Assembly (NCBI GenBank): GCA_963809895.1
Contig: CAWELD010000003.1
Coordinates: forward strand, 2,912,001-2,976,000
Length of the DNA stretch: 64,000 nucleotides
Source of the DNA: an uncultured Gemmatimonadales bacterium
GTDB lineage: Bacteria; Gemmatimonadota; Gemmatimonadetes; Longimicrobiales; Gaopeijiaceae
Direction: 5' to 3'
The notes beneath the pieces are model-generated. The model had not been told where the DNA came from and made no database searches. It worked only from the letters and a program-made list of their open reading frames with translations. Position numbers and translations under genes: made by a program. Below, piece by piece: positions 10,590 through 58,019 of the stretch (the first letter of the stretch is position 1; every line of letters starts with the position of its first letter).

Positions 10590-10768
10590 GAAATCCCTCT
10601 CGGAAGGCGGTGGGCACCGGGCCATGCTGCAGGTCCCGGCCGCCTCGGGCAAGACCACGCGTCTGCCGGCGGCGAGAGCGGCACAGCGGCGGCCCCGGGG
10701 AGTAGTCCAGAGAGCCCGGGCGCTCGCCTTTCGGGCGCACCCGCTGACCACGATTCGATCGACCTGCC

Positions 10769-11641
10769 ATGCCCTTCGATGCCGACGACCTCATCGACCT
10801 GCTCGACCTGGAGCCCATCGAGCACAACATCTACCGGGGCAAGAACCGCGACATCGGCACCGATCGGGTCTACGGTGGCCAGGTCCTGGCCCAGGCGCTG
10901 GTGGCCGCCCAGCGCACGGTGGGCGAGGACCGGCCGGTGCATTCCATGCACGGCTACTTCATCCTGCCCGGCGACCTGTCCGTGCCCGTGGTCTACTTCG
11001 TGGACCGGCTGCGCGACGGCGGATCCTTCACCACCCGGCGGGTGACGGCCATCCAGCACGGACGCGCCATCTTCAACCTGTCGGCATCGTTCCACCGCCA
11101 CGAGGAGGGCCTGGAGCACCAGACCGAGATGCCCGACGTGCCTCCGCCCGAAGAGCTCCCCTCGGAGCTGGACCTCATCCGGGCCGGCGCGGACCGCATC
11201 CCCGAGGAGCTCCGCGACGTGCTCACCCAGGAACGTCCGCTGGACATCCGCGTCGTGGGCGGCGAGAGCCCCTTCGACACCTCGCCTCGGGAGCCCCGGC
11301 GCCGGCTCTGGGTGCGGGCCCGAGGCAGGCTGGGCAATCAGGAGCTGCAACACCGGGCGGTATTGTCCTACGCCTCCGACTACGGCCTCATCGTCACCGC
11401 GCTCCGCCCCCACGGCATGAGCTTCCGCGACCCCCGGGTCATGGTGGCGAGCCTGGACCACTCCATCTGGTTCCACCGCTCCTTCCGGGCCGACGAGTGG
11501 CTCCTGTACGACGTGGAAGGCCCGGTGGCCGCGGGCGGACGCGGCTTCGCACGCGGCACCTACTTCACCCGCGACGGCACGCTGGTGGCGTCGGTGGCTC
11601 AGGAGGGGCTGATGCGGCTGAGGCGGGACCGGAACGCGTAA
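10769..11641 (+). CDS. tesB: Acyl-CoA thioesterase II
   Basis: VYGGQVLAQAL, HSMHGYF, RDGGSFTTRRV, ASLDHSIWFH and SVAQEGL motifs. Confidence 0.95.
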   Translation: MPFDADDLIDLLDLEPIEHNIYRGKNRDIGTDRVYGGQVLAQALVAAQRTVGEDRPVHSMHGYFILPGDLSVPVVYFVDRLRDGGSFTTRRVTAIQHGRAIFNLSASFHRHEEGLEHQTEMPDVPPPEELPSELDLIRAGADRIPEELRDVLTQERPLDIRVVGGESPFDTSPREPRRRLWVRARGRLGNQELQHRAVLSYASDYGLIVTALRPHGMSFRDPRVMVASLDHSIWFHRSFRADEWLLYDVEGPVAAGGRGFARGTYFTRDGTLVASVAQEGLMRLRRDRNA

Positions 11642-25452: not shown

Positions 25453-26091
25453 CTACGCGTCCTGCGCGTCCGCAAACGTGACCTCGAACGCGCACTGCGC
25501 TCGCCGTCCCCGCTCACAGACCTCGCGCACACGCCCTCCAGTGGTCTCACGAACCAGGGCCTCCACCAGGCCGCAGGCCCGCGCATCCTGGCGCGTCACG
25601 GCGGAGAGTGGACATGCGGAGCCACGAAGGGTCCACATTCCGTCCCGGTGGCGAACCTCCACGCTTCCGCCCAGCGCCCGCAGTGCGGCCGCCGCCTGGG
25701 TGACGCGTGCCTCGGGGCTTCCCGACCCTGGGGTGGCCGCCTCGACGCCCACGTCGTCCAGGAGCTCGCGGAGTCCCGACGACCCCAGCCTCGTCTCGAC
25801 GGCGTCCATGAGACGCTCCAGAACGAAGGCGTACGCTTTGGGAAAGAGCTCGTCGGCCTCCTGGGTGACGGAGTAGGTGGCCGCCGGCTTTCCTCCGGTA
25901 TCCCGGCGGACGCCGGTTTGGAGGACCAACCCGTCCCGCTCCAGCGCAGCCATGTGTCCACGGATGGCGTTGGGTGTCACTCCCACCTCCTCGGCCACCT
26001 CCTGAATCGTGCGATCGCCGCGTTGGAGGAGCTGCATCACCTGCAGACGAGTATCGCCCGCGAGTCGCTCGAGCCAGTCCGGTGCCACCAT
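25453..26091 (-). CDS. ArsR/SufR-like (COG2345) HTH regulator with Cys metal/Fe-S motif
   Basis: HTH TIQEVAEEVGVTPNAIRGHMAALERDGLV; GGKPAATY; LFPKAY; ACPL...AC...C...CAF. Confidence 0.85.
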   Translation of the reverse strand: MVAPDWLERLAGDTRLQVMQLLQRGDRTIQEVAEEVGVTPNAIRGHMAALERDGLVLQTGVRRDTGGKPAATYSVTQEADELFPKAYAFVLERLMDAVETRLGSSGLRELLDDVGVEAATPGSGSPEARVTQAAAALRALGGSVEVRHRDGMWTLRGSACPLSAVTRQDARACGLVEALVRETTGGRVREVCERGRRAQCAFEVTFADAQDA

Positions 26092-26314
26092 GAGTCCCAC
26101 TCCACCAGAGAAAACGGTAAACGAAGGATAAACTGGGCTTTCCTTCCAGTTCCCTCTCCCGTTCCCGGTACGGGCTTCTACGGACCACCGCCGGGGCACA
26201 TCCCGACACGGATCTCCAGCCGCGTCCCACAGCCTGCGCCCCCGGCGATGGCTTAGGCTTACGCTACCAGACGGCTGCGAATCGAACGAAGCGCCCCGAA
26301 CCCCCGAGGTCGAC

Positions 26315-27539
26315 ATGCGTCACGGACGTCCCCCTGGTCATCCCCACGGCCACTCCTCCTCCAGGACGGGTCCCCTCGGGATGACGCTCGACTTCGACCA
26401 GGCGCCCTTCCTGGTCATCTGGGAGACCACCCAGGCCTGTGACCTGGCGTGCAAGCACTGTCGGGCCGAGGCCCAGCCGCTGCCGCCACCCGACGAGCTG
26501 ACCACGGCCGAGGCAAAGAAGCTACTGGAGGACGTGCGGCGCTTCGGCCCCATCATCTTCGTCTTCTCCGGCGGTGACGCGCTGAAGCGGCCCGACATCG
26601 TGGAGCTGACCCGCTACGGCACCGAGCTGGGACTGCGCATGGCCATCACGCCGGCCACCACGCCGCTGTGCTCCGAGGAGAAGCTGCGCGAGCTCCACGA
26701 GGCCGGGATGGCCCGGCTGGCGGTGAGCCTGGACGGCTCCGACGTCGGCGGTCCACGACGAGTTCCGCAGGTGCAGGGTTCGTTCGACCACGGACTCCGG
26801 ATCCTGCGCACCGCCCGGGAGATCGGCATGTCCACCCAGGTGAACACGGTCGTCGCCCGCCACAACGTGAACGACTTCCGCGTGATGGCCGAGCTGCTCT
26901 CGGAGCTCGGGATCGTCTTCTGGGAGGTCTTCTTCCTCGATCCCCATGGGGCGCGCGCGCCCGGAGGACGTGGCCGGCGCAGAGGCTTTCGAGCGCGTGT
27001 TCAACGAGCTCTACGACTGCCAAGAGGTGCCGTTCGACATCAAGGCCACGGCCGCGCCCCAATACTCGCGCGTGGTGCTCCAGCGGAAGGTCGCGGAGCG
27101 GCGAGAAGGGATGCGGGACGGAGGCGTCGGACGTGCTCACCGACGGTGTCGGCCCACTCCCTGAGCGACGGCATCGGCCGGGCCCGGGGCGTGAACGACG
27201 GCGACGGCTTCATGTTCGTGAGCCACGTCGGGCGACATCTTCCCGTCGGGCTTCCTCCCCATGTCGGCGGGCAACGTCCGCACCCACGACCTGGTGGACA
27301 TCTACCGCAACGCTCCGCTCTTCCGGCAGCTCCGCGACCGGTCAGCTCTCAAGGGCAAGTGCGCGGTCTGCGAGTACCTGCGCGTGTGCGGGGGGAGCCG
27401 GGCGCGGGCCTACGCGGTCACCGGCGATCCCCTGGAGGCCGAGCCCTTCTGCGCCCACATCCCGAAGCGGTACCAGCGGATGGTGGAGGCCGGTGAGGCC
27501 GAGCCGGTGGATCCGTACTTCGCCAGCGAGGGCTCTTGA
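26315..27539 (+). pseudogene. Radical SAM/SPASM protein (TIGR04053/AhbD-like) with several frameshifts
   Basis: IWETTQACDLACKHCRA (CxxxCxxC), FSGGDAL, VNDGDGFMFVSH; SPASM KGKCAVCEYLRVCGGSRARAY...EPFC lies in another frame. Confidence 0.85.
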
Positions 27540-27599
27540 TCGGGGGATAGCGCCTCGATCCATGGAGGGAGGGCGACGTGAGAACGGCGCCACCCGTGC

Positions 27600-27946
27600 C
27601 GTCGCAGGCGCTTCAGCAGGTAGCGCCGCAAGGCACCGCGTTGTTGCGCTCGGTGTCGCGGGCTGCGTATACGAGCGTCGCCGGCCCTTCCCTGACGGCG
27701 TCGAGAAGCGTCACGAGGCCGTCGGGATCGCCATCCAACTCGGCGTGGTATCGCCGGAGTAGTTCGTCCCAGCGCTCCGGGTCCCGGTCGTACCAGCGCT
27801 GCGGACGTCGTTCGGTGCGACGTAGCCGAGCTACGCCTCGCTCGCTCGCCTTCCCTGCTCACTCCCGCGGCCAGAGTCGGTCCACCAGGAAGCGCCGGCC
27901 AACGTCGTCGGGCGGCGCGTCGTGACCCGCCGGACCAGGTTCGCAT
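27600..27946 (-). pseudogene. DUF488/YeaO-family protein, frameshifted, absent from the ORF track
   Basis: Manual minus-strand translation gives GRRFLVDRLWPR...RWYDRDPERWDELLRRYHAELD...TLVYAARDTERNNAV. Confidence 0.8.
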
Positions 27947-29232
27947 GGAACCTCGCCCCGGGCTCAGGAACCCGCGGACCCCCGGGCCGAGCCCCCGCCA
28001 GGCGCTCCGCAGTCCGTCGCGCCTCCGCCAGCCGCCCGGGAATCCCGGGCCGCCCATCCAGTTCGCCGCGACGTGAAGCCGCTTGGGAGGCCCAGCCCTG
28101 CAGGGCGCCCCAGGACCCGTCCCAGGCGGGCATGACCTCGCGCTCGACGGCGAGGGGCCGCGCGTCGTACCCGGTGCAGGTCCGGAACTCATCGACCGCG
28201 AGGCGGGCCAGCTCGGTGTCGGGCAGTTCGACGACTTCCGGGCGGCGCCGCCCAGGTATGCCGTGTACACGTTCCGTCGGCCGAACATGGAGTGGTTGTA
28301 CGTGACGCCCCGGAGCGCGAGGTGCTCCGTGAAGGCGACCTGAAAGCCGAGTCCCTCGAGGTCCGTCTCGGCGTCGAGATGCACCACCGCCAGCGGGTTG
28401 TAGTGGAGGGACCGAAGCGCGCCGGCGGCGTCCGGCGCGACGGAATCCAGCAGGGTCGCCACGGCCGGCGCCGGAGCGGTGAACACCACCTGCTCGGCGT
28501 CCAGAGGCCGCCATCGACCTCGAGGCACCCGCCCGTGCGCTCCGCTCGCGGGCCTCGCACGGGCGCACCGAGACGCACGCCTCACCCAGAGATCGCGCGA
28601 GGGCGTTCGGCAGGGTCTGCATGCCCTCCCGGAACGACAGGGCCGGCGGGGGCACGATGCGCCCGCCGCGCCGCAACAGAGGAAGCACGAGACTCCGGCG
28701 AATACCGAACTCGCGTCAGCACGTGTCCCAGTGACAGCCCGACCACCATGTCCGCGGGATCGGAGCCGTAGAGGCCTCCGTAGAGGGGCGCTACGAGCGT
28801 CTCGTAGATCTCCCGTCCGACCTTCCGCGTGAAGTAGCGGGCTACGCGTTCCCCGGGATCGGCACCGGAGGTGAGGGGCTCGAGGGCGAGGCGCAGCTTC
28901 GCCATGGGGCTCACGATGTCCGAGCGCAGGAAGTCGCCCGCCGAGAACGGAACGCGCCGTAAGCGCTTCTTCCGGTACACGAACAGGCCCAGCCCGGAGG
29001 GTGCGATGAGCGCCTCTCCCTCCAGCTCGAGATCCTCCACCAGATCGCGGAGTCCGGACGTCAGGCGTGTACGTTGCGGTCCCCACTCCAGCACGCGATC
29101 CTCGACGCGTGCGCTCCGGATGACACCGCCGGGCCGGTCGGAAGCCTCCAGGACCACGAAGTCCACCTGCCGGCGACTCAGCTCCCATCCCAGAACGAGC
29201 CCGGTGATCCCTCCCCCCACGACGGCGATCAT
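27947..29232 (-). pseudogene. hemY: HemY-type FAD-dependent (co)protoporphyrinogen oxidase, frameshifted
   Basis: IAVVGGGITG, LEASDRPGGVIRS, EWGPQ, PLYGGLYGSDP, SFREGMQTLP and GFQ segments across several frames; 3' end approximate. Confidence 0.85.
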
Positions 29233-30326
29233 GCTTCTGCGCGGTGCTCGCCCGGCTCGCGGGGGTGACGTACGGGCGGGGGCAGGTCTCGCGCCCCGTT
29301 GGTGCACCACGTGTCGTCCAGTGGGCAACAGCGGCACGCGGAAAGTACCCCGGGACGCGTCGGGTCCTCGGCCATCGCCTGGCTCACCAGGTCCGCCAGG
29401 AAGCGCGGAAAGCGTGGATCGTCGTGCGGCACGGGGACGCGGTGCATCTCCTTGCCGAGGCTCTCGACGAAGGCTCCGAGTTCGTGATCGAGCTCCGCCA
29501 GCGTTTCGGATTGCTCGTGCATGAACGAGATCGGCACCACCACGAGCCGCCGTTCCGGGCGACGGCGAACGGCGTCGTCGTTGTCAGGCTGTGTCCATCG
29601 GATGCGGCGGTTGGTGTGATTCTGGAAGCCGACCTCGTATCGGTCGGCGCGCAGTGCGTGGGCGATGTCACGGCAGTGCTCGTAGACGTAGCGATCGTAC
29701 CTGTTCCCGTCGGACAGGTAGCGCACCGGTGTGCCGTGGACGGAGAAGTACAGGAGCGTGTCCGGATCGCTCAGGTCGAGGCCGCCGCTCGCCAGGAAGG
29801 ACCTCAGGTGCTCGACGAGCATGCTCCGATAGGCGGGGTGGTGATGCCAGCCTGCGATCCCGACGAAGCGCGGCGTCCACCCGACCTCATCGAGGGCCGC
29901 GCGCACGTCACGGAGCGCGGCGGCGGTCGTGGAATGCCCGCACATGGGATAGACCGGAAGCGCCACCAGCGTGTCGACGCCGTCGGCTCTGGCCTCCGCC
30001 ACCTTCTCCTGGATGGAGGGCTCGGTGAACTGGAAGGCGGAGTAGACGCGCGCGTCTCGACCCCGTGACCGCAGCTCCGTCTCCAGTGCGTGGGCCTGGG
30101 CATCGGCCTGGCCGTTGAGGGGTGAGCCTCCGATGGCGGCGTAGTCGCTTACCAGACCGGGTGCCCTGTCCGCCGCGAGCTGCCGGGCGCGCGAGACCGC
30201 CGCCGCGTCGGCGTGGCCTTCCAGGCTCGCGTTCTGGAGGAAGATCCTCTCCAGGTAGGGGCGCGCCTTCTCGAGGGTCGCCTCGTCGGGCTCACCGAAA
30301 TTCAGGATCAGGACTCCGATGGACAC
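29229..30326 (-). CDS. hemH: Ferrochelatase with Cys-rich C-terminal extension
   Basis: GVLILNFGEP, IGGSPL, LPVYP, FSVHGTP, WTQP, PISFMHEQSETLAELD; tail CRCCPLDDTWC. Confidence 0.92.
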   Translation of the reverse strand: MSIGVLILNFGEPDEATLEKARPYLERIFLQNASLEGHADAAAVSRARQLAADRAPGLVSDYAAIGGSPLNGQADAQAHALETELRSRGRDARVYSAFQFTEPSIQEKVAEARADGVDTLVALPVYPMCGHSTTAAALRDVRAALDEVGWTPRFVGIAGWHHHPAYRSMLVEHLRSFLASGGLDLSDPDTLLYFSVHGTPVRYLSDGNRYDRYVYEHCRDIAHALRADRYEVGFQNHTNRRIRWTQPDNDDAVRRRPERRLVVVPISFMHEQSETLAELDHELGAFVESLGKEMHRVPVPHDDPRFPRFLADLVSQAMAEDPTRPGVLSACRCCPLDDTWCTNGARDLPPPVRHPREPGEHRAEA

Positions 30327-30374
30327 GTCACGGGCTCCGGTGGGGTGGGTGCGCAGGGCCTCGTGGAGGTGGGG

Positions 30375-31418
30375 TCAACCCGCTTTGCGAAGCGACTGTT
30401 CGTGTACGCGGTCGACCAGGAAGGCCACCTGGTCGGGATCCGTCGTGCGGTGGATTCCGTGTCCCAGGTTGAACACGTGGGCGGCGGCGCCGGAGCCTTC
30501 CTTCAGCACGTCGTCCACGGCGGCGGCCAGCTCGCTGCGGGGAGCGAACAGCGCCGCCGGGTCGAGATTGCCCTGGACCACCACATCTTCGCCCAGATCC
30601 TGCACGGCCCTGGACAGGGGGAGCGTCCAGTCGATGCCCACCACGTCGGCGTCGAGCTCCCGCACATCGGAGAGCAGGGTCGCGCCGGCATTCGCGAAGT
30701 AGATGACCGGACGGTCCACCTGCGCACGGATGGCCGCGACGGTGTCCTTCAGAACCGGGAGAACGTGGCGGCGGTAGCTCTGCGGGCCGAGGAGTCCCGC
30801 CCAGGAGTCGAAGAGCATGAGGGCGTCGGCGCCCGCCCTCGCCTGGGCGACGAGATAGGCCGCCATGGACGTTCCGAGGAGGCGCAGCAGGCGGTTGGCG
30901 GTCTCCGGCTCGGCGTGCAGGAAGGCACGAGCCGTGGCGAAGTCCTTGGATCCGCTCCCTTCGACGAGATAACAGAAGAGCGTGAAGGGCGCCCCGGCGA
31001 AGCCGATGAGGGCGGCGTCGCGACGGAGCTCGGCCCGCACCAGGCGCAGCGCCTCCATGACGAAGCCCGCGCTCTCTTCGGGCACGAGCGCCCGGAGAGC
31101 TTCCACGTCGCTTGCGGAGCGGATGGGCCGGTCCAGGACCGGCCCCGGCGCGAAGTCCAGGCCCACTCCCATTCCCTCCAGGGGCGTCATGATGTCGCTG
31201 AAGAGGATGGCGGCGTCCAACGGGAAGCGCTCCACGGGTTGGAGCGTGATGCGTGCCGCGACGTCGGGGGTCTTGGTGGCGGTGAGGAAGTCGACGTGCT
31301 CGCGCAGCTTGCGGTACTCCGGCAGGTATCGCCCCGCCTGCCGCATGATCCAGACGGGTGGGCGCGGTCCACGGATCCCCCGACAGGCCTGCTCGAAGAG
31401 CGTCTTGGGCTCAGGCAT
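30375..31418 (-). CDS. hemE: Uroporphyrinogen decarboxylase
   Basis: [45 protein letters not shown] and FNLGHG motifs. Confidence 0.96.
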
Positions 31419-32698
31419 CGGGGAAATCTTCTTCCGTCATGACGTCCTCGGCGGCGTCCAGGGTACGCTCGACGTCCTCGGGGGTGTGCGCGAACGACCA
31501 GAACCACGCCTCGAAGGGGCTGGGCGGCAGGTGGATGCCCCGGTTCAGAAGCCCATGGAAGAGGGCCGTGAACCGCTCCCGGCTCGCCGCCGAGGCCGAG
31601 GGCCAGTCGATCACCGGTGTCTCGGAGAAGAAGAGCGACCCCATGCCACCCACACGGTTCCACCGCAGCGGGATTCCGAGCCGACGGCCCAGGTCCGAGA
31701 AGCCCTCGTCGAAGGCCCTGCCGAGGGCTTCCAGGTGCTCGTACACGGCCCGACTCCTCGTCGATGTATCGGAGCGTCGCCAGGCCTGCCGCCACGGCCA
31801 GCGGGTTGCCCGAGAGCGTGCCCGCCTGGTAGACGGGACCGTCGGGGGCGATCTGGCGCATGAGGTCGGCCCTGCCCCCGTACGCACCCACCGGAAGGCC
31901 TCCGCCGATGACCTTGCCGAGGGTCGTGAGGTCCGGCGTGATTCCGTAGCGTCCCTGTGCTCCCTGGGGGCCGACGCGGAAGCCCGTCATGACTTCGTCG
32001 AAGACCAGGAGCGCACCGTGCTCGTGGCACAGGGCCCGGAGGCCTGCGAGGAAGCCGTCGACGGGAGGGATGCACCCCATGTTGCCCGCGACGGGCTCGA
32101 CGAAGACGGCCGCGATCTCCCCCGGTGCGCGCTGAAGAGGGCCTCCACCCCGGCGAGATCGTTGTAGTCCGCCACCAGTGTGTCCGAGGCCGCTCCGGCC
32201 GTCACGCCGGGGCTGGACGGCGTACCCAGGGTGGCCGCGCCCGAGCCGGCCTCCACCAGGAAGCTGTCCGCGTGCCCGTGGTACCCGCCCCGGAACTTCA
32301 CGACCCGGTCGCGACCTGTGGCCGCCCGCGCCAGGCGGAGCGCGCTCATGGTGGCTTCGGTGCCCGAGCTCACGAGGCGAACCACCTCGAGGCCGGGCAC
32401 CCGGGCGACGAGCGTCTCCGCGAGGAGCACCTCGCCTTCCGTGGGGGCTCCGTACGACGTGCCGGCCTCCACGGCGTCGAGGAGCGCCCGCGACACCGCG
32501 GGGTGGGCGTGGCCGAGGAGCATCACGCCCCAGGAGCCCACGTAGTCGAGGTAGCGGTTGCCGTCCACGTCGTACAGGAACGCGCCGCCGGCGGAACGGA
32601 TGAAGCGGGGTCCCCCCCACGCCTTTGAAGGCGCGCACGGGGCTGTTGACTCCACCGGGGATGACCTTGGCTCCTGAGCTCTTCGAGGCGGTGGTGGT
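31411..32698 (-). pseudogene. hemL: Glutamate-1-semialdehyde 2,1-aminomutase, frameshifted; 5' end lost in the poly-G run
   Basis: [69 protein letters not shown] and PPSPFEAWF over several frames. Confidence 0.9.
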
Positions 32699-33385
<687 letters not shown>

Positions 33386-33389
<4 letters not shown>

Positions 33390-34298
33390 GGGCCCAAGCA
33401 GCGCTGCGGTGACGGCCCCGTCCAGTCTCCGGCCTCCAGCAGCGTGGTCACCCCAAACTCCCGGAGGATGACTTCGGCGCAGCGCTCGCCGACGGCATCG
33501 GCCTCCGTGACGGAGCCGGACGTTTCCCGGTCAGCCGTCACCCGGCGTGATCACGGAGGTGCGGAGCGTGAGCCCTCGGCCGTACCGATGCGATACAGCC
33601 CACCGGGGCCTGACAGCCCGCGCCCAGTCTGCGCAGACACGCTCGCTCCGCGTCTCCGAAGCGCGTCCACGGTGGTCCAGCGCTGGCCGCCCCGGCGCGC
33701 ACGTACTGGCGCTGATCTTCGCAGATGGGGCAGGACGTCGGGAGCGGAACTCGGTGATTCGCGCCCCCATCCCCAGTCGCAGCAGTCCGGCCGCCGCGAG
33801 CACGGCGGCATCGACGCGGCCCTCGTCCACCGCCTTCAGCCTCGTCGGCACGTTCCCTCGCAGGTCTTCCAGCACGAGGTCGGGACGGGCGAGCCCCAGG
33901 AAGCTCTTGCGGCGTACGCTGGCTGTGCCGATCCGGCTGCCGCCGGGGAGATCGGCGAAGCCCACGCCGGCGCTGCCGACCAGGACGTCGCGAGGGTCTT
34001 CTCGCGCAAGGACCGCCCCCAACCCGAGGCCAGGCGGAAACACCGTTGCCAGATCCTTGCAGGAGTGGACGGCGATGTCCACCCGATCGGTCAGGAGGGC
34101 ATCTTCGATCTCCTTCGTGAAGAAGGACTGGCCCACGTTTGGTCCCAGGGGCAGGTCCACGATGCGATCGCCTGAGGTCGTGATCTCCACGATCTCGACT
34201 CCGAGCCCCGGATTCGCGTCCAGGAGACGCGTCCGGACCTGACGTGCCTGCACCAGCGCCAGACGGGAGCCCCGCGTGCCGAGACGGATCCGGCTCAC
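33386..34298 (-). pseudogene. hemC: Hydroxymethylbilane synthase; C-terminal third garbled by indels after ~33745
   Basis: IRLGTRGSRLALVQ, TSGDRI, FTKEIE, DIAVHSCKD, REDPRD, GTASVRR, LRGNVPTRL and VLAAAGL motifs. Confidence 0.9.
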
Positions 34299-35596
34299 GA
34301 CGCCCGCTCCGTGCCGAGAATCACGGGCTCTCCGTCCGAGGCGACGCCGAAGAGAGCCTCGGCGGCCCGGAGCACACCCCGACCTTCCACCGTCCGGACG
34401 TCGGCTTCTCTGAGCGCACGCGTGGGCTCGTGCAGGAGCGTCCGCGCCAACGACCGCGCGAAGCGCTGCAGGGTCTCGCGCTGCTCGGGCTCCAGGCCCC
34501 GGGCGTGACGGCGAGCCGCCTCTCGTGCCTGCTCGAGCACGCGCTCACTCACGGCTCGTACTACCGGAGCTGCGGCGCGGGCTCGGGCCCAACGCACGAA
34601 GCGATCGACCTCCTCGGCGACGACGGCTCTGGCCACTGGAACCTGTGCCGCCCTGGTCTGCCGAACGGCCGCAACGCGCTCGTGAACCGCCTGCAGGTCG
34701 AGCACCTCGACGCCCACGAACTGTGCGAGCCGAGGATCGATCACGCGCGGATGGGAAAGATCCACGACGTACCGACGTGCGGGTGCGGCGGCCTGCCAAG
34801 CGGACGCCGTGTCGCAGTCTACCAGGTAGTCCGGCGATGCGGCGGCGCCCACCAGCAGGTCCGTGTCCCGCAGGAGCCGCGGGAGCTCGGCGAGCGCGTG
34901 CGATGTGCCCGTGCCGAGCTCACGTACGAGCTGCCGGGCTCGCTCGGGGGTACGGTTGACGATGCGCAGCCGGGAGACGCCCGCCTTCACCAGGAGCCGT
35001 GCGACCAGCCCGGCCGTGTCTCCGGCACCCACGACCACGGCCCTGCGATCCTCCAGGGTCCCGCCGCGCCTTCGAACGAGGTCCAGGGCGGCGCTGGCGA
35101 TGGAAGCGGCGCCCCGACCGATCTCCGTCTCCGTTCGTACACGCTTGCCCGTGGACACGGCCATCTCGATGAGTCGATGCAGGACGGGCCCCAGGGTGTC
35201 GGCCGCATCGGGCTCGGGAAGCATATCCCTCACCTGACCCAGGATCTGGGCCTCGCCCTGCACGACCGAATCCAGGCCCGCCGCCACCGCGAACAGATGA
35301 TCCGCCACCGCTTCGGCACCCGTGCGAAAGTACGAGTGACGCGCGAGCTCCCGGACGGGCAACCCCGTCTCCCGGGACGTGAACCGCCCCAGGACCGCCC
35401 GCACGCTCTCGGGCTCGTCGGCCACGCCGTACACCTCGAAACGACCGCACGTCACCAGGGCCGCGCCCTCGGCGAGGTGGCCTTTCCGCGTCATACGACC
35501 CAGGACGGTGAGGAGCCGGTCCGGATCCACATGCATGCGCTCCCGCAGGGGCGTGGACGCCGTGCTGTGGCTGGTGCCGAGGAGGAAGAGCTCCAT
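34295..35596 (-). CDS. hemA: Glutamyl-tRNA reductase
   Basis: GTSHSTA..LRE, TCGRFEVY, HLFAVAAGLDS..GEAQILGQV, GKRVRTET, VGAG, NRT and LLHEP motifs. Confidence 0.93.
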   Translation of the reverse strand: MELFLLGTSHSTASTPLRERMHVDPDRLLTVLGRMTRKGHLAEGAALVTCGRFEVYGVADEPESVRAVLGRFTSRETGLPVRELARHSYFRTGAEAVADHLFAVAAGLDSVVQGEAQILGQVRDMLPEPDAADTLGPVLHRLIEMAVSTGKRVRTETEIGRGAASIASAALDLVRRRGGTLEDRRAVVVGAGDTAGLVARLLVKAGVSRLRIVNRTPERARQLVRELGTGTSHALAELPRLLRDTDLLVGAAASPDYLVDCDTASAWQAAAPARRYVVDLSHPRVIDPRLAQFVGVEVLDLQAVHERVAAVRQTRAAQVPVARAVVAEEVDRFVRWARARAAAPVVRAVSERVLEQAREAARRHARGLEPEQRETLQRFARSLARTLLHEPTRALREADVRTVEGRGVLRAAEALFGVASDGEPVILGTERAS

Positions 35597-35611
35597 GTGC
35601 GATCGCGTGAC

Positions 35612-37338
<1,727 letters not shown>

Positions 37339-37455: not shown

Positions 37456-38460
37456 GTGACCGCGCGACCCGCTTCGCACGCCGCCTCGAGGGTGCTAGCT
37501 TCCAGCCGGAGCCGGCGACGCCCCACGACCGGATCGACTCCCTTGGACGAAACCTTCCACCGCGGCATTCGCTCGGCCCAGGCCGGCCTGCTGGTCAACA
37601 CGCTGCTGGCCATCACGAAGTTTCTGGCCGGCCTGCTGGGCAACAGCTACGCCCTCATCGCCGACGCGGTGGAGTCCACGGCGGACATCTTCTCGTCGCT
37701 GATCGTCTGGGGCGGGCTGCAGGTCGCGCGCCGGGATGCCGACGAGCTGTACCCCTTCGGCTATGGGAAAGCAGAGTCCCTCGCGGCGTCGGCGGTGTCG
37801 CTCATGTTGTTGGGCGCGGCGGTGGCCATCTCCGTCGAATCCATCGGGGAGATCCGCACGCCCCATCACGCGCCGGCCCCCTGGACCCTGGCGGTCCTGG
37901 TCGCGGTGATGCTCGTGAAATGGCTTCTGTCGAAGAGGGTTCACGCGGTGGGCGTCGGCATCGGCAGCACGGCGGTGCAGGCCGACGCGGGCCATCACCT
38001 GAGTGACGCCCTCACCTCGGCCGCGGCCTTCGTCGGGATCTCCATCGCCCTCATCGGCGGACCGGGCTGGGAGCAGGCCGACGACTGGGGAGCGCTGGCC
38101 GCCTCCCTGGTCATCGCCTACAACGGCGTCAAGCTGCTGCGGCCTGCCGTCCACGACCTCATGGACCGGATTCCCGCCGAAGCCGTGGTGCGGCGGCTGG
38201 AGGATGCCGCCCGGGGCGTGCCCGACGTGCTGGACATCGAGAAGACGGCGGTGAGGAAGTCGGGGCTGGTCTACCGGGTGACGCTGCATGTGCAGACCCA
38301 TCCCGAGATGTCGCTGGAGGACGCGCACATCCTGAGTGGCAAGGTGAAGACCGCCATCATGGCCGCCGAGCCCCAGGTGTCGTCGGTCCTGATCCACATG
38401 GAGCCCTACGATCCCCCCGACGCCGACCCCTCACGCGATGAGCCGCCCTCAGCCCCCTGA
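37456..38460 (+). CDS. Cation diffusion facilitator (FieF-like) transporter
   Basis: SYALIADAVESTAD, YPFGYGKAE, ADAGHHLSD, LHV and VLIHMEP motifs. Confidence 0.92.
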   Translation: MTARPASHAASRVLASSRSRRRPTTGSTPLDETFHRGIRSAQAGLLVNTLLAITKFLAGLLGNSYALIADAVESTADIFSSLIVWGGLQVARRDADELYPFGYGKAESLAASAVSLMLLGAAVAISVESIGEIRTPHHAPAPWTLAVLVAVMLVKWLLSKRVHAVGVGIGSTAVQADAGHHLSDALTSAAAFVGISIALIGGPGWEQADDWGALAASLVIAYNGVKLLRPAVHDLMDRIPAEAVVRRLEDAARGVPDVLDIEKTAVRKSGLVYRVTLHVQTHPEMSLEDAHILSGKVKTAIMAAEPQVSSVLIHMEPYDPPDADPSRDEPPSAP

Positions 38461-39391
38461 CCCGGCCTCACGCGAGAGCGCCTTCCATCGCTCGGGCATG
38501 GTCACCAGGCTCGCCGGGTCCACGCTGGTGCGCCCGTAGCGCACGACCCAGTGGAGGTGGGGACCGGTCACCCGTCCGGTGGCACCCACCAGCCCGATGG
38601 GTGTCCCTGCCTGCACCGTATCGCCCACGGCCACGAGCTGCTTGCTCAGGTGGAAGTAACCGCTGAGGAGCCCGCCGCCGTGGTTGAGGTAGACGATGTT
38701 GCCCGCAAGCAGGAACGAATCCACCAGCGCCACCACGCCGCGAGTCGCCGCACGCACCGTGTCGCCGGGATCGCCGTCCAGGTCGAGGCCCATGTGGCGG
38801 CTCGAGATCTGGCCGTTGAACTCGCGCCCGCCGCCGAACTCGCTGGTGACCCGGGCGTTGCGGGGCAACCTGACGTCATCGGTCCACAGCCGGGGCGTCC
38901 GGTGCGCCTGCCGTGATACCTCCGCAGCCTTGGCCTGGTCACGGGCCAGCCGAGCGGCTGCCGCCGAGTCCAGCGGCGAGCCGAACTCCGGGGCCACCGT
39001 GAGCTTCTCGTGGGTGAAGGTCCCCGTGGCCACGGGAACATCGGCCTCGGCCCGCTGCTCCCCGACCCCCGCCGAGGTCACCGTCACCGTTACCGCCAGG
39101 CTGCCCGTGGCGTCGACAGGCACGGGCGCCAGGCTCTCCCAGGCCCCGTCGGCGGTGCGGACGAAATGGAGCTCCTCACCGGCCACCCGGCCCGCCACCG
39201 TCGCCGCCTCCGATCCGTCAGCGAGCTCCACGCGCACCACGAAGAGCTGGCCCTGACGCGGGTGCTCGGGGCTCCACCGCAGGGCGGGCGGCGCCGGGGG
39301 TGCCGCAGCGCGCCGAGACGCCGCAGGACGAGGCGGCGGCGCCCACGACCAGCACCAGAGTGGCGGACAAGGCCAGGGATCGCATGATCAT
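38449..39391 (-). CDS. M23-family metallopeptidase lipoprotein (one probable frameshift ~39255)
   Basis: HMGLD, NHGGG..SGYFHLS, GATGRVTGPHLHW; the lipoprotein leader (MIMRSLALS...ASSC) lies in another frame. Confidence 0.85.
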
Positions 39392-53134: not shown

Positions 53135-54517
53135 ATGCCCAATCACAAAGGCCTGGTGGAGATCCAGGACAGTGCGAACAACCCGACCATCGTTCTCGAC
53201 GGGGAGACCGGCGATGTGGTCGCTGGCGGCTCCGGCCAGGACGGGCTCCTGGTGGCTAGCGACGGCGCGGGCAACGAGCGAGTTCGAGTGGACGGGTCGA
53301 CGGGAACGGTGGAGGTGCTCTCGCCGAGCGGCGATCCGGTGGTCCTCGTGGACGGCACCGAAGGAGACGTGGTCATCTACCGCATGGTCGGGGGCGCCAA
53401 CCGCGAGGCTCTCCGCTTCGATGCCAGCTCCGCCGCCCTCACCCTGGGGGCACAGGACTGCGAAGGCGACCTGCTGATACGGGATCAGGCCGGACGAACG
53501 GTCCTCCGTTTCGATGCCTCTTCGTCGGCCCTGTACGTGGGCGCGGAGGGGAACGAAGGCGACATCGTGGTCCGGAACGGCAACGGAGACTATGCCTTCC
53601 AGGTGGACGGCAACACCGGCAACCTGTGGGTTCGCCGCCGGATCGGCCGAACGCTCCGCAACGTGCTCCACTTCGATGCCGTCCACGCCGCGCTCTACAT
53701 CGGGTGTCAGGGCAACGAAGGCGACCTCATCATCCAGGACGGAGGAGGCCGGGACGTCTTCCGTTTCGATTCCAACCGGGCGGCCCTCTACCTGGGCCAG
53801 ACCGGCAACGAGGGCGATCTCATCGTGCGCGACGGTGGAGGCAGACAGGTCTTCCACTTCGACTCCAGCCATGCCGCTCTCTATCTCGGGGCCGACGGGA
53901 ACGAGGGGGACCTGATCATCCGGGACGGTGATGGACGGGACGTCTTCCGATTCGACGCCAACTACGCGCTTCTCGACGTCGGCGCGGCCGGGAACGAGGG
54001 CGACATCCGGGTCCGGGACAACGACGGAGACGTGCGTATCCACCTGGACGGCAACTCCGGAGACATCAAGCTCCTGGGCGCCGACTGTGCCGAGGACTTC
54101 GAGGTCGACACGCCCGACGCGGCCGAAGACGGAACGGTCCTGGTCATCAACGACGACGGGCGCCTGGAGCCCAGCGCCCACGCCTACGATCGGCGGGTGG
54201 CAGGCGTGATCTCGGGAGCCGGGGGCTACCGCCCCGGACTGATCCTCGACCGGAAACCCGGCCAGGGCGCGAACGGACGGTCCGACACCGCACCTCCGGG
54301 ACGACGTCCCATCGCCCTCACCGGCAAGGTCTTCTGCTGGGTGGACGCCGCTTACGGACCCATCGGTGTGGGCGACCTTCTCACGACTTCGGACACCCCC
54401 GGCCACGCCATGCGCGCCGCCGATCCCCTGAGGGCCTTCGGTGCCGTCATCGGGAAGGCGCTCGGCCGCCTGGAGCGTGGGCGTGGCCTGGTGCCGGTCC
54501 TGGTCGCTCTCCAATAG
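53135..54517 (+). CDS. Tail-fibre/spike-like repeat protein with C-terminal peptidase-G2-like intramolecular chaperone domain
   Basis: Six ~31-aa repeats FDxxxAALYxGxxGNEGDLIxRDxxGRxVxx; then GADCAEDF...VAGVISGAG...PIALTGKV...GDLLTTS...GAVIGKAL; no signal peptide; GAGG RBS. Confidence 0.7.
   Translation: MPNHKGLVEIQDSANNPTIVLDGETGDVVAGGSGQDGLLVASDGAGNERVRVDGSTGTVEVLSPSGDPVVLVDGTEGDVVIYRMVGGANREALRFDASSAALTLGAQDCEGDLLIRDQAGRTVLRFDASSSALYVGAEGNEGDIVVRNGNGDYAFQVDGNTGNLWVRRRIGRTLRNVLHFDAVHAALYIGCQGNEGDLIIQDGGGRDVFRFDSNRAALYLGQTGNEGDLIVRDGGGRQVFHFDSSHAALYLGADGNEGDLIIRDGDGRDVFRFDANYALLDVGAAGNEGDIRVRDNDGDVRIHLDGNSGDIKLLGADCAEDFEVDTPDAAEDGTVLVINDDGRLEPSAHAYDRRVAGVISGAGGYRPGLILDRKPGQGANGRSDTAPPGRRPIALTGKVFCWVDAAYGPIGVGDLLTTSDTPGHAMRAADPLRAFGAVIGKALGRLERGRGLVPVLVALQ
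53417..54043 (+). repeat. Intragenic degenerate 93-bp tandem repeats
   Basis: Recurring TTCGA(T/C)...GG(C/G)AACGA(A/G)GGCGA(C/T); one unit carries a ~23-aa insertion. Confidence 0.85.
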
Positions 54518-54528
54518 GAGCCGGAGAC

Positions 54529-55248
54529 ATGGCATCGATTCGTAGCCTGGCCGCCTGCATGGGGCTCTCCGGAGACCTCTCCGTTCTCGGAGACCTCTTC
54601 GGGTTCTTCCGGCGACAGGTGCCCCCCGATCCCACCGGGGCTGCCACCCAGGTCTCGCTCAAGACCCAACTCCAACGCCTGGGCGGACGCCATCACCACC
54701 TCAACGTCATCGCCGTCGGCGTCGATCAGTTCACGGACAGCGACGACATCCAGGTGGACTACGCCATCTACCGTCTGAGGACGATCTGGAGCCAGGTGTC
54801 GTTGGGTGTGGGTCGAATCCAGCATTGGGGTGTGGATACCGCCGATGCGGGGGGGCTGGACACACCCACGTCCAAGGGCGATCTGGAAGACATCACCGAC
54901 AGCTGGACCGTCGCCAACGACGGCATCGACATGTTCATCCCCCACAACATGAACATCCCCAGCGACGGAGGAATCATCCTGGGCCGGTCGGCCATCGACG
55001 GCCCCTGCGAGGACAAGGACGACAAGGGGATGAACGGGTCCACCGCCGGGCTGTGGGGTAGTGAGCAGACGGCGCGCACCTTCGCCCACGAGCTGGGCCA
55101 CTACCTGGGCCTCGAACACAAGAATGGGAGCCCGAGCAATCTGATGTGCCAGAGTGGCAAGGCCAGCAGTACGCGCAATTCGGTGAACCTCACCAGTGGC
55201 CAGGGAAGTGACATGCGCGACCACTGCCTGGTCCGAGGGGGATGCTGA
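54529..55248 (+). CDS. Metzincin zinc metallopeptidase (M43/M10-like) without signal peptide
   Basis: TFAHELGHYLGLEH (HExxHxxGxxH) plus Met-turn NLMC; AGGAG RBS. Confidence 0.85.
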   Translation: MASIRSLAACMGLSGDLSVLGDLFGFFRRQVPPDPTGAATQVSLKTQLQRLGGRHHHLNVIAVGVDQFTDSDDIQVDYAIYRLRTIWSQVSLGVGRIQHWGVDTADAGGLDTPTSKGDLEDITDSWTVANDGIDMFIPHNMNIPSDGGIILGRSAIDGPCEDKDDKGMNGSTAGLWGSEQTARTFAHELGHYLGLEHKNGSPSNLMCQSGKASSTRNSVNLTSGQGSDMRDHCLVRGGC

Positions 55249-56270
55249 TGATGACACGGAAGCCGACCCACGGTGGCGGTGACTTTCTGCACGCGGAAGC
55301 CTACGAGCTCGAGGAGCTCCGTTCCGCCGTGTTCCAGGGCTCGGATCGCCTGCCCCGTCCGCTGGCCCTGGGGCTGCTCGCCCGCAAGGCCTATCCCGAA
55401 AAGACCGACGACTTCGCGCGACTGCTCATGAACGACGATGAGCCTCCGGGCCTCCGTAAGGTGGCCGCCCACGAGTTGGCCCGCATGGACGCGCCCGAGG
55501 CCACGACCCTGCTTCGGGAAGCGCTCTCGGTCCGCGACCCGCTGGTGAAGCAGGACGTGATCGCGGCGCTGGCCCGGGTGGGCGGCGACGAGGAGTTGAA
55601 GGCGGTGCGTGGCTTCCGCGACCGCAAGACGGGAGACGTCGCTCGATCCGCGCAGTGGACGTCGCAACTGTTGACCTACCTGACCGGCGCCCGGGGGAAC
55701 GGTGTGCCGATGCCGCCGCGACGCACCTGGCGGCCGGCCGATGAACGGCGAGCCCAGCCCGTCGAGGTCGCGAAGGCGCGCGGCAAGCGCCTCGAGGCCG
55801 CTCTGGACGGGGCGCGTCAGGCGATCCCGGCGGCCGGGCTGAGCCCGGAGGGGGGCCTGGCCCTGACGTGCGGGGACCGAGAGATGGTGCTCCTGCTGCG
55901 AGAGGGAATCTCGCAGGGTGGTGCCCAGGCCTTGCGGGACTCCCGAACCGTGGCGGCGGTGATCACCGAGCGCCACACCCTCGAAGACGAGAGCTGGGAG
56001 ATCCGCTTCCTCGTCCTCACCGAACCCTCGGACGACGAGACCGCGCTACGGGTCCTGGTGTGCACGCCCCGCGGCGTCGTGCGCTTCGTGGGAACGCTCG
56101 CCCTGAAGGGCGACACCCCAGGAGCCTTCGAGCTCGTGGGCGTCGACGGGCCCGGCGCCATCCCCCTCCTGGCGGACGGGGTGTTGGACGAGGGCGTCGT
56201 CCGCTTCGACCGGCTCCTGGCGGAGCAGCGCACCCGGCCCGGAAGTGGACGCGGGGTGCGGAAGCGCTGA
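55248..56270 (+). CDS. HEAT-repeat-containing hypothetical protein
   Basis: LRKVAAHELARM..ATTLLREAL..DPLVKQDVIAALARVG HEAT/PBS-lyase-like repeats; TGATG coupling; beta-rich C-terminal half. Confidence 0.7.
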   Translation: MMTRKPTHGGGDFLHAEAYELEELRSAVFQGSDRLPRPLALGLLARKAYPEKTDDFARLLMNDDEPPGLRKVAAHELARMDAPEATTLLREALSVRDPLVKQDVIAALARVGGDEELKAVRGFRDRKTGDVARSAQWTSQLLTYLTGARGNGVPMPPRRTWRPADERRAQPVEVAKARGKRLEAALDGARQAIPAAGLSPEGGLALTCGDREMVLLLREGISQGGAQALRDSRTVAAVITERHTLEDESWEIRFLVLTEPSDDETALRVLVCTPRGVVRFVGTLALKGDTPGAFELVGVDGPGAIPLLADGVLDEGVVRFDRLLAEQRTRPGSGRGVRKR

Positions 56271-56364
56271 ACCATTCCGACGCCCGGGTGACTCGCGGCG
56301 CATCCTTCCCTTACATTGGCGCTCGCGGAGCCGCACGGCAGCATCCCTCTCACCCGGGCGTCCC

Positions 56365-58019
56365 GTGGCATCCAACTCCGTCCATCTGGATCGGGGCCGA
56401 CGCGCCTTCGAACAGCGATCGTGGGAGCTCGCCCACGACGCCCTGCGGGCAGCGCACGACGCCGGTCCGCTGGCGCCCGCCGACCTCTGGCGCCTCGCGC
56501 TCACCGCGTACCTGCTCGGTCTCGCCGAGGAGTTCGTCGACACCGCGCAGGAGGCCTACAAGGCATGCCTGCTGGAGGAGGACGGCCCCGCGGCCGCCCG
56601 CTGCGCCTTCTGGCTCGGATTCCACCTCGCCAATCGCGGCGACATCGCCCAGGCCAGCGGCTGGTTCGGCCGAGCGGGACGTCTGCTGGACGAGTTCGGG
56701 GGCGAACATCCGGAGCGCGGCTACCTTCTCATTCCCGCCGGATATCGGCGCTTCGTGGAGGGCGCCTACGAGGACTCGGCGACCATCGCGGCGCAGGCGC
56801 TGCGACATCGGACGACGTTTCGGCGAAGCGGATCTGGTCGCGCTGGCTCTGCACCTCCAGGGTCGTGCACGCCTGCGGCAGGCCCGGATCGACGAGGGCC
56901 TGGCGCTGCTGGACGAGGCCATGGTGGACGTGTCCACCGGTGAGCTCTCGCCACAGACCACCGGCCTCGTCTACTGCAGCGTGATCGGCGCATGCCGGGA
57001 AGTCCAGGCGCTGGGACGCGCTCACGAGTGGACCGCGGCCCTCAGCGAATGGTGCGAAGCTCAGCCGGACATGGTCGCGTACACGGGCGAGTGCCGGGTC
57101 TACCGGGCCGAGATCCTCCGCCTGCGCGGCGAGTGGCGCGATGCCATGAACGAGGCCAGGCGCGCCTCGGACCGGTTCGCCAAGGGCTCGGAGCCCGCAT
57201 CCGCGGGATCTGCCCTCTACCAGCAGGGGGAGATCCATCGCCTGCGCGGCGCGTTCGCCGCCGCGGAGGAAGCCTACAAGGCGGCCAGCCTCGAAGGTCG
57301 GGAGCCTCAGCCGGGGCTGGCGCTCCTGCGGCTGGCCCAGGGCGACGACGAGTCGGCCCTGGCCGCCATCCGGCGTGCGTTGGCAGGAACGCGCGAGCCG
57401 CGGCGGCGTGTGGCGCTCCTGCCGGCCGCCATCGAGATCCTGCTCGACGCCGGCGAGATCGCGGAGGCCCGAACCGTTCAGGACGAGCTCCGTCGGGATC
57501 GCCGACGCGTGCGCGCCGGGACTGGTGGGTGCCACGGTGCTGCAGATGGAGGGTGCCATCGCGCTGCGGGCCGGCGACGCCGACGGTGCCTTGGCACCTC
57601 TGCGCCGCGCCTGGAAGGCGTGGCGCTCCATCAACGCGCCCTACGAGGCAGCGCGCACCCGGGTGCTGCTGGGTCGGGCTTGCCTGGAGATGGGCGATCA
57701 GGACACGGCCGCAATGGAGATGGAGGCGGCCCGAGCGACCTTCGAGCGACTGGGCGCCACGCCCGATCTCGCCCGACTCGACGCGCTCACCCGGCAGCGA
57801 CGACCTGCCCCCCGTCACGGCCTCACATCGCGGGAGCTCGAGGTCCTCTCCCTCGTGGCGACGGGGCGGACCAACCGCGCCATCGGCCAGGAGCTGAGCA
57901 TCAGCGAGAAGACCGTCGCGCGCCACCTCGCCAACATCTTCACGAAGTTGGACGTTTCCTCGCGCACCGCCGCCACGGCCTACGCGTACGAGCACGGCCT
58001 CCTGGAGCCGTCTACATAG
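56365..58019 (+). pseudogene. TPR + LuxR-type HTH regulator with two frameshifts (~56800, ~57495)
   Basis: [42 protein letters not shown]-terminal [37 protein letters not shown]. Confidence 0.88.

Follow-up and report, generated by a model that had tools for sequence, protein, structure and literature searches.

A conserved three-gene operon in a Gemmatimonadales genome that may mount a tagged protease on a phage-type fibre

Phage φ29 gp12 carries a C-terminal domain, D4, that directs trimer assembly (bioRxiv 10.1101/216911; PMC4690869), and β-tulips are described as trimeric interaction modules (bioRxiv 10.1101/216911). In phage S16, three tryptophans of gp38 fill three symmetric pockets of the gp37 trimer (PMC6851490), and HEAT repeats are listed among immunity proteins (PMC3482391), each as given in the accessible parts of these sources. 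Here we describe a three-gene operon from an uncultured Gemmatimonadales bacterium (GCA_963809895.1, contig CAWELD010000003.1), which lies in the window analysed, a stretch of 64,000 nucleotides (nt) at positions 2,912,001–2,976,000. The reading that we favour, tentatively and with confidence just short of even, is that the operon represents a modular ‘fibre plus tagged enzyme’ system, in which a tag docks one enzyme on a trimeric fibre, a HEAT-repeat protein serves as inhibitor and the target lies outside the producing cell. The account of fibre, trimer and docking draws on sequences and, for the fibre, on a monomer model.

All three open reading frames (ORFs) are intact and lie on the plus strand. 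Gene 1 (53135-54517) encodes an all-β fibre-like protein of 460 amino acids (aa), identified from its relatives and a model; gene 2 (54529-55248) encodes a predicted reprolysin-like metzincin of 239 aa, identified by motif, Pfam match and alignment; and gene 3 (55248-56270) encodes a protein of 340 aa with HEAT repeats and an α/β C-terminal domain, identified by Pfam match, model and linkage. A first-pass annotation, made from the letters, had described three tightly coupled genes without Sec or Tat signals in a window free of phage, secretion and mobility genes, and its layout was confirmed throughout. Genes 1 and 2 are 11 nt apart, with AGGAG overlapping the gene 1 stop codon and GGAG directly 5′ of the gene 2 ATG, and genes 2 and 3 are joined by TGATG (a further in-frame ATG for gene 3 lies at 55242). 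No product has an uncharged 11-mer within its first 40 residues, by a crude test, not SignalP, in which 4/4 control proteins from the window score 2.6–3.0. A PHROGs scan of the 42 called ORFs of the window found no tail, capsid, integrase or packaging gene; its sole structural-category match is of the peptidase type (ORF 38452-39240), and the three products have nothing above cut-off in PHROGs or NCBIfam. Each gene is present in one copy in the host genome, which is 95% complete.

Gene 2 begins with a tag that the first-pass annotation missed (54529-54684, plus strand; residues 1–52), as it also did the interchangeable cargo, the three types of fibre and the pairing of the HEAT gene with the protease instead of the fibre. 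The roughly 50 residues of the tag hold three x-S-[LIV]-[RK]-x-x-hydrophobic units, with S-[LIV]-[RK] pseudo-repeats at S3, S18 and S43, and includes Cys10. The units resemble each other (a matrix made from one unit scores the other two at the 95.7–99.5th percentile; mean z 1.7–3.2) and, judging from their pattern, may be helical. Genes encoded behind fibres with a C-terminal chaperone domain of the peptidase G2 type, the type of gp12, start with a similar stretch of about 50 residues. A profile built only from 23 non-metzincin examples, chosen by eye, ranked gene 2 first among 6,062 ORF starts of the host (17.6 bits; next, 8.7) and placed 24/24 metzincin starts above the 99th percentile of the background. 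A search of 1.84 billion proteins with a profile enlarged to 35 rows gave 139 matching clusters (E ≤ 0.001), with nearly all matches in the first 70 residues; 98 of these clusters carry a protease domain of the gene 2 type, and a few weak rows are unrelated repeats. The other tagged cargo includes galactose-oxidase-like, FN3, PKD, M64, C25, C70-like, GDPD with PLAT, metallophosphoesterase and pentapeptide proteins, and further domains without assignment. No Pfam or NCBIfam family covers the tag. Because the same tag is found on many unrelated enzymes encoded directly behind fibre genes, it probably ties these enzymes to the fibre as a mount. Some proteins have the tag at the C terminus (L027 and L028, about 10600–10840; P0296; P0347), and one galactose-oxidase-like protein has it at both ends (L022:5844-7718).

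The presence of the tag follows that of a fibre gene. Among 34 proteases of the gene 2 family, 28 are tagged and every one of these has a fibre gene upstream (25 of the G2 type and three of a second type); the other six are untagged, and none has a recognizable fibre. These six reflect three changes on the protease tree (a single clade was rejected, p-AU 0.033; there is one long branch among them), and three have other N-terminal domains in place of the tag (FG-GAP, HhH and one without assignment). One isolate genome contains both arrangements, an untagged protease without a fibre (L080) and a tagged protease behind a G2 fibre (L122). In a held-out set of 20 metagenome loci, four of which could not be scored, a fibre accompanied 13 of the 14 tagged proteases (nine G2, three second type and one S74) and neither of the two untagged ones. 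Across 6,439 ORFs from 134 loci, 33/33 non-seed tag hits (≥12 bits) lay no more than 4 kb downstream of a fibre gene; 657 of the ORFs fall in this zone (L122, on the minus strand, was read by hand). Frameshifted or truncated loci (L007, L073, L076, L128, L136, L139, L152 and L154) and duplicates (L071 and L087) were excluded from the tag–fibre counts, and loci with only a weak HExxH match (L090-L119 and L155-L172) were not taken as members of the gene 2 family.

Fibres before tagged genes end in G2, S74 (L144) or coiled-coil modules. The S74-chaperone fibre (L144:998-2017) has no signal peptide, precedes a tagged protease and a HEAT gene, and has an N-terminal end similar to that of the G2 fibre of L029. 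A second family of small fibres (L072:7494-7997, L074, L077, L127 and L146:3214-3972), without a Pfam match, has R-A-L-V-H-D β units and a C-terminal coiled-coil pattern; it always precedes a tagged protease where seen, and L146 combines its units with a repeat of the gene 1 type. A gene of 162–169 aa, also without a Pfam match, is located between the fibre and the tagged gene in a cyanobacterium and a methanogen with unrelated shafts (L008:1946-2434 and L039:6765-7274).

Gene 1 would provide the fibre. The monomer model is all β (pLDDT 70, with low confidence at residues 362–395), and the shaft (53399-54037; residues about 89–301) comprises the six 31-aa β repeats that the first-pass annotation had counted, starting at residues 89, 120, 174, 205, 236 and 267 (one step is 54 aa), with a looser seventh unit from residue 55. 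A last rung (54050-54082), G-D-[IV]-x-L-x-[NG]-A, in which G306, G309, D310, L313 and A316 are invariant in 24/24 rows, stands ahead of the predicted cleavage site; it is retained in cellular fibres and replaced in the long viral G2 fibres (L054-L070), and would become the tip of the fibre if the chaperone is removed. In sequence searches of solved structures, the only matches were designed β-propellers. A likeness to RHS or teneurin proteins in a Foldseek search of the monomer against the PDB was rejected as a match to β-hairpin look-alikes (TM 0.10–0.13; root-mean-square deviation (rmsd) 30–43).

Gene 1's C-terminal domain (54083-54514) is led by ADCAE at residues 316–320, an ADxAE motif that had already prompted the comparison with the peptidase G2 chaperone, and this comparison gains support. 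Model residues 318–458 align with residues 693–854 of a φ29 gp12 fragment (3gqh; VIA Z 8.7, rmsd 3.3, 101 aligned), and residues 316–460 align to β-tulip proteins. D317 and E320 are invariant in 115/115 rows. With the register taken from the start of the aligned range (318 on 693), we take them to be the counterparts of the cleavage-site Asp D692 and the catalytic E695 of gp12. In the Pfam check that the annotation had proposed (Peptidase_G2, PF11962), two close relatives exceeded the cut-off (P0107 and P0108) and 5/7 others matched below it, whereas the window protein had no match. On the basis of the fold match, the two invariant residues, the relatives that reach PF11962 and the role of the gp12 domain in trimer assembly, we read the modelled domain as a G2-type intramolecular chaperone; by analogy, gene 1 would form a homotrimer and probably cleaves itself at A316|D317. 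Relatives of gene 1 number 3,473 at E ≤ 0.001 among 8,000 scored candidates. Relatives keep the C-terminal domain and the ten residues before it, with wholly different shafts and N-terminal ends, and only 1/111 reaches the hydrophobicity threshold for a signal peptide.

The zinc-binding motif and Met-turn of gene 2 (55087-55146; residues 187–206) and its several cysteines stand as first annotated. H187, E188 and H191 of HELGHYLGLEH (residues 187–197) are invariant in 115/115 rows and Met206 in 17/17 aligned relatives, and the protein reaches the Pfam cut-off for Reprolysin_5 and Reprolysin_3, the features of a reprolysin-like M12 metzincin, as which we annotate its predicted product. It has no hydrophobic stretch for a Sec signal, and the Sec signal and propeptide of an exported protease of this kind were not found. 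We rejected LAAC (residues 7–10) as a lipobox, as it occurs too early and 114/119 relatives have a charge within the six positions before the cysteine. Two of the five cysteines, C160 and C233, are invariant (115 rows) and are the only two in the untagged protease of L079. Cys10 and a terminal cysteine are present or lost together: 27/28 tagged proteases have both, L050 and L122 have neither, and the terminal cysteine occurs in 0/6 untagged proteases. Of 55 full-length representatives, a script assigned both to 47; in five more the second cysteine lies 5–11 residues short of the C terminus, two lack both and one has the first only. The invariant pair and the co-varying pair point to two disulfides and an oxidizing workplace for the protease, and suggest that it works outside the cytoplasm despite the lack of a signal peptide.

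As the first-pass annotation had noted, gene 3 has HEAT repeats (HEAT_2 at residues 61–135, E 3.7e-14); in the model (pLDDT 91.6) these span residues 21–146 and are followed by an α/β domain at residues 173–325. Fold searches, which scarcely probed the C-terminal domain, returned HEAT proteins only, and we assign that domain no fold; atlas searches with it and with the tag yielded no usable hit, a result that carries no weight. The HEAT part alone is kept in L009, L010, L012, L020, L083 and L085. By a profile built from the same loci, a HEAT gene follows the protease in 33/34 cases (the exception lies at the end of a contig) and in 17/20 held-out loci, with or without a fibre, and in 0/31 cellular fibre loci with other cargo. 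For gene 3, word-based searches gave one relative or none, and its relatives were drawn from the loci. Because the HEAT gene tracks the protease whether or not there is a fibre, gene 3 appears to be a partner of the protease rather than of the fibre; by analogy, an inhibitor is likeliest. Five loci (L079, L080, L081, L145 and L147) consist of minimal pairs of a signal-less protease and a HEAT gene, with no fibre or tag, and may be two-gene toxin–inhibitor units. In two Porticoccaceae loci, the trio is followed by a signal-less NAL1-like trypsin gene (L019:3105-4151 and L024:10869-11876).

The module is conserved, as the neighbourhood check proposed with the first-pass annotation required. When a single genome of each species was scanned, gene 2 returned 7 loci, gene 1 returned 43 and a gene 2 alignment returned 49, and profile placement found all three genes in the same order in 24 distinct loci of other genomes, which belong to six phyla (Actinomycetota, Acidobacteriota, Gemmatimonadota, Bacteroidota, Cyanobacteriota and Pseudomonadota). 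The protease is present in only 1/40 relatives of the host, where all three genes occur (one operon beyond the 24), and in 0/19 genomes of the same genus, and phyla are intermixed on the protease tree. Among 108 neighbouring ORFs of 20 loci, those with Pfam matches are mostly housekeeping genes, and there is no tail, capsid, baseplate or type VI secretion system (T6SS) gene; the exceptions are one core gene of an extracellular contractile injection system (eCIS) in L083 and TIR or STAND genes beside L004 and L011.

We hypothesize that the G2-type chaperone helps gene 1 to fold into a homotrimeric β fibre and then, as in gp12, cuts itself off at A316|D317 to leave the trimeric fibre. The three pseudo-repeats of the tag would seat one enzyme molecule on the three-fold fibre, much as the attachment domain of gp38 caps gp37, so that the fibre would offer reach or target binding and the tagged domain an exchangeable activity. 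If the protease depends on disulfides, it would act after leaving the cytoplasm, from which it would be freed most likely by lysis or by another signal-free route; until release and oxidation, the HEAT protein may bind it in the producer as an inhibitor or folding partner. The likeliest use would be to attack or digest other cells at their surface. A stronger form of this proposal, which we regard as possible rather than probable, is that these loci constitute a widespread, undescribed, machine-free delivery system of bacteria and archaea, in which a domesticated phage fibre trimer takes up whichever enzyme has the pseudo-three-fold tag and, once loaded, exits by a signal-free route; the enzyme would be switched on by oxidation, and the HEAT inhibitor would protect the producer.

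Several observations weigh against the fibre-docking proposal. The same type of tag occurs behind fibres with unrelated N-terminal ends, shafts and C-terminal ends, so that no one conserved surface for docking stands out, and a gene 1 G2 query gave a G2 match in 0/5 genomes with the second fibre type. One tagged locus (L150) has no fibre in 478 bases upstream. Two or more tagged genes follow one fibre in L002, L004, L086 and L045, more than one tip could carry simultaneously. The untagged proteases, too, are without a signal peptide and retain C160 and C233, which indicates that release is independent of the tag or fibre; one protein, P0365, has the tag cysteine only; and no conserved exporter occurs near the loci. 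Before the Asp of the D-x-A-E motif, gp12 has Ser where gene 1 has Ala, and capsid decoration proteins match the gene 1 domain as well as or better than gp12 does. Finally, the counts overstate independence, because the tag seeds were chosen by eye and there are close kin among the loci.

Some of these points would fit a tag that acts instead as a signal for sorting or export, recognized by a machine whose genes lie elsewhere, be it an injection system or an unknown route, with the fibre and enzyme as separate co-exported cargo. Its N-terminal position on unrelated signal-less enzymes and its indifference to fibre type agree with this idea, and candidate machines exist: a contractile sheath gene (PF04984) occurs in 16/38 locus-carrying genomes (many of them incomplete metagenome-assembled genomes), L083 has its eCIS-core gene, and the host has a T6SS TssC gene about 435 kb from the operon. 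We nonetheless consider an export signal unlikely. The single tagged ORF among 6,062 in the host is beside the sole fibre, tags are lost along with the fibre, TssC occurs in only 6 of the same 38 often incomplete genomes, the isolate genomes G006, G024 and G025 have neither marker (PF05943 may fail to detect Bacteroidota T6SS) and the 108 neighbours include no machine genes. With these frequencies, and with a T6SS gene and no PF04984 match in the 95% complete host genome, the earlier suggestion of detached injection-system cargo is not supported as a rule, whereas the G2-like chaperone and the conserved three-gene module of the same annotation are. The host genome has two TssC-like T6SS genes (G000:C3:3400724-3403427).

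Fibres could also tether hydrolases and oxidases outside the cell as a matrix or feeding device instead of a weapon, with the HEAT protein as a folding chaperone; galactose-oxidase-like, FN3, PKD and phosphoesterase domains would suit this role, and most cargo types have no HEAT partner. No part has a signal peptide or an anchor, however, and the spread is very patchy, with a gene tree that mixes phyla, a pattern that is usual for conflict genes; we find this use decidedly doubtful. An intracellular conflict switch, in which a fibre that senses or imitates a component of a phage would release the protease from its inhibitor, the HEAT protein, would account for the lack of export signals, the inhibitor-like partner and the TIR and STAND genes beside two loci. 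Two co-varying cysteine pairs that point to an oxidizing compartment, neighbours that are mostly housekeeping genes, and oxidase, FN3 and PKD cargo that fits poorly make such a switch improbable.

The fold matches also allow an uncut β-tulip that docks the fibre on an HK97-type shell (phage, gene transfer agent or encapsulin), as the base of φ29 gp8.5 does, so that the module would decorate particles. The best match is this gp8.5 base (Z 10.3), two capsid decoration proteins follow at Z 10.0 and 9.8 within a range of Z 7–10 for such proteins, and the trimeric interactions described for β-tulips would suit particle decoration (bioRxiv 10.1101/216911, in the parts accessible). We consider this very improbable, given that the domain is C-terminal and opens with an invariant D-x-A-E that is in register with gp12, that S74 and coiled-coil fibres stand in for the β-tulip and that no capsid genes are nearby. 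A decayed prophage fragment, a reading to which the phage-type architecture of gene 1 and its likeness to phage fibres might lend themselves, is refuted by three intact ORFs conserved outside prophages across six phyla, by the absence of phage genes beside the loci and in the window, and by viral contigs that contain G2-like fibres and only six short HExxH matches, with no full-length protease of the gene 2 family. Three contigs from viral collections (L051-L053) have cellular-type G2 fibres (56–58% identity) followed by untagged genes.

The remaining features of the locus are of a general kind. Judging by sequence, the genes that flank the operon encode a tricorn-like protease and a regulator, and the G+C content at third codon positions is 0.83, 0.83 and 0.87 for genes 1–3 versus 0.85–0.89 in three neighbours. 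We found no sigma-70-like promoter and no clear terminator at the operon. One metatranscriptome contains 0.10 of the operon words, in short contigs that cover parts of genes 1–3, one of which spans the gene 2/3 junction; transcription is not thereby shown. Directly after gene 3 is a perfect 13-nt inverted repeat with a 58-nt spacer (56279-56291 / 56350-56362). A LuxR-type regulator gene (56245-58019) is apparently broken across three frames, possibly by assembly frameshifts, and haem-synthesis genes at about 26000–36700 show similar breaks. GC reaches 0.80 at 32000-35000, with a strong G skew of 0.35.

Whatever its role, the tag defines a gene module that occurs in methanogenic archaea and in at least six bacterial phyla, and through it thousands of fibre-like proteins without annotation are connected with enzymes of changing kinds. 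Should the tag dock on a trimer, cells have adopted the fibre-plus-cap design of phages as a mount for enzymes, and a module of 50 residues would offer an easy way to attach a single protein to a trimeric fibre. Should it be a sorting signal, it would mark an unknown signal-free export route.

We found no description of this module in the literature searched, which left out most subscription papers, and its parts have known kin. Like φ29 gp12 (PF11962), gene 1 has a C-terminal β-tulip with D-x-A-E at its start after a β-rich shaft; unlike gp12, it is a cellular stand-alone gene with no virion anchor, another shaft, Ala before the Asp and tagged enzymes behind it, and no tagged neighbour accompanies the viral G2 fibres L054-L070. 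The gp37(3)–gp38 pair of T-even phages (phage S16) likewise combines a trimeric β fibre with a next gene that encodes a small N-terminal domain of three equivalent elements, as far as the accessible text of PMC6851490 goes; no sequence link is shown here, and our module differs in its S-[LIV]-[RK] tag, its enzyme cargo, the absence of a virion and a docking that is proposed by analogy. Bdellovibrio MAT fibres, found in cells, are trimeric and phage-like mosaics, and some include a chaperone that cleaves itself, but they carry signal peptides, share an N-terminal domain and end in S74 or adhesive tips, and the accessible parts of PMC10769870 describe no tagged enzyme or HEAT partner; gene 1 has no signal peptide with which to begin the MAT order of signal peptide and conserved N-terminal β domain. 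Polymorphic toxins share a constant N-terminal module, an exchangeable peptidase or enzyme domain and a downstream partner gene. In the accessible parts of PMC3482391, however, the partner of HEAT is Tox-REase-7, metallopeptidase toxins are carried by RHS and the leading domains are known secretion domains; none of this is the case here. The module has the constant N-terminal part and variable enzyme domain of such toxins, and its HEAT gene, which tracks the protease, may be a cognate immunity gene, with no HEAT-like partner found for other cargo; Pfam and NCBIfam searches placed neither tag nor fibre in any family, and hence in no known domain for trafficking or system for secretion. The neighbours include no sheath, tube or baseplate gene of an eCIS, PF04984 is absent from the host genome, and there is no linked VgrG, PAAR or adaptor gene as for a T6SS effector, the host TssC being far away. 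By its sequences, the module is therefore outside the eCIS, T6SS and MAT groups and has no known trafficking domain. In our reading, it joins a phage fibre-cap design to the enzyme-partner logic of polymorphic toxins.

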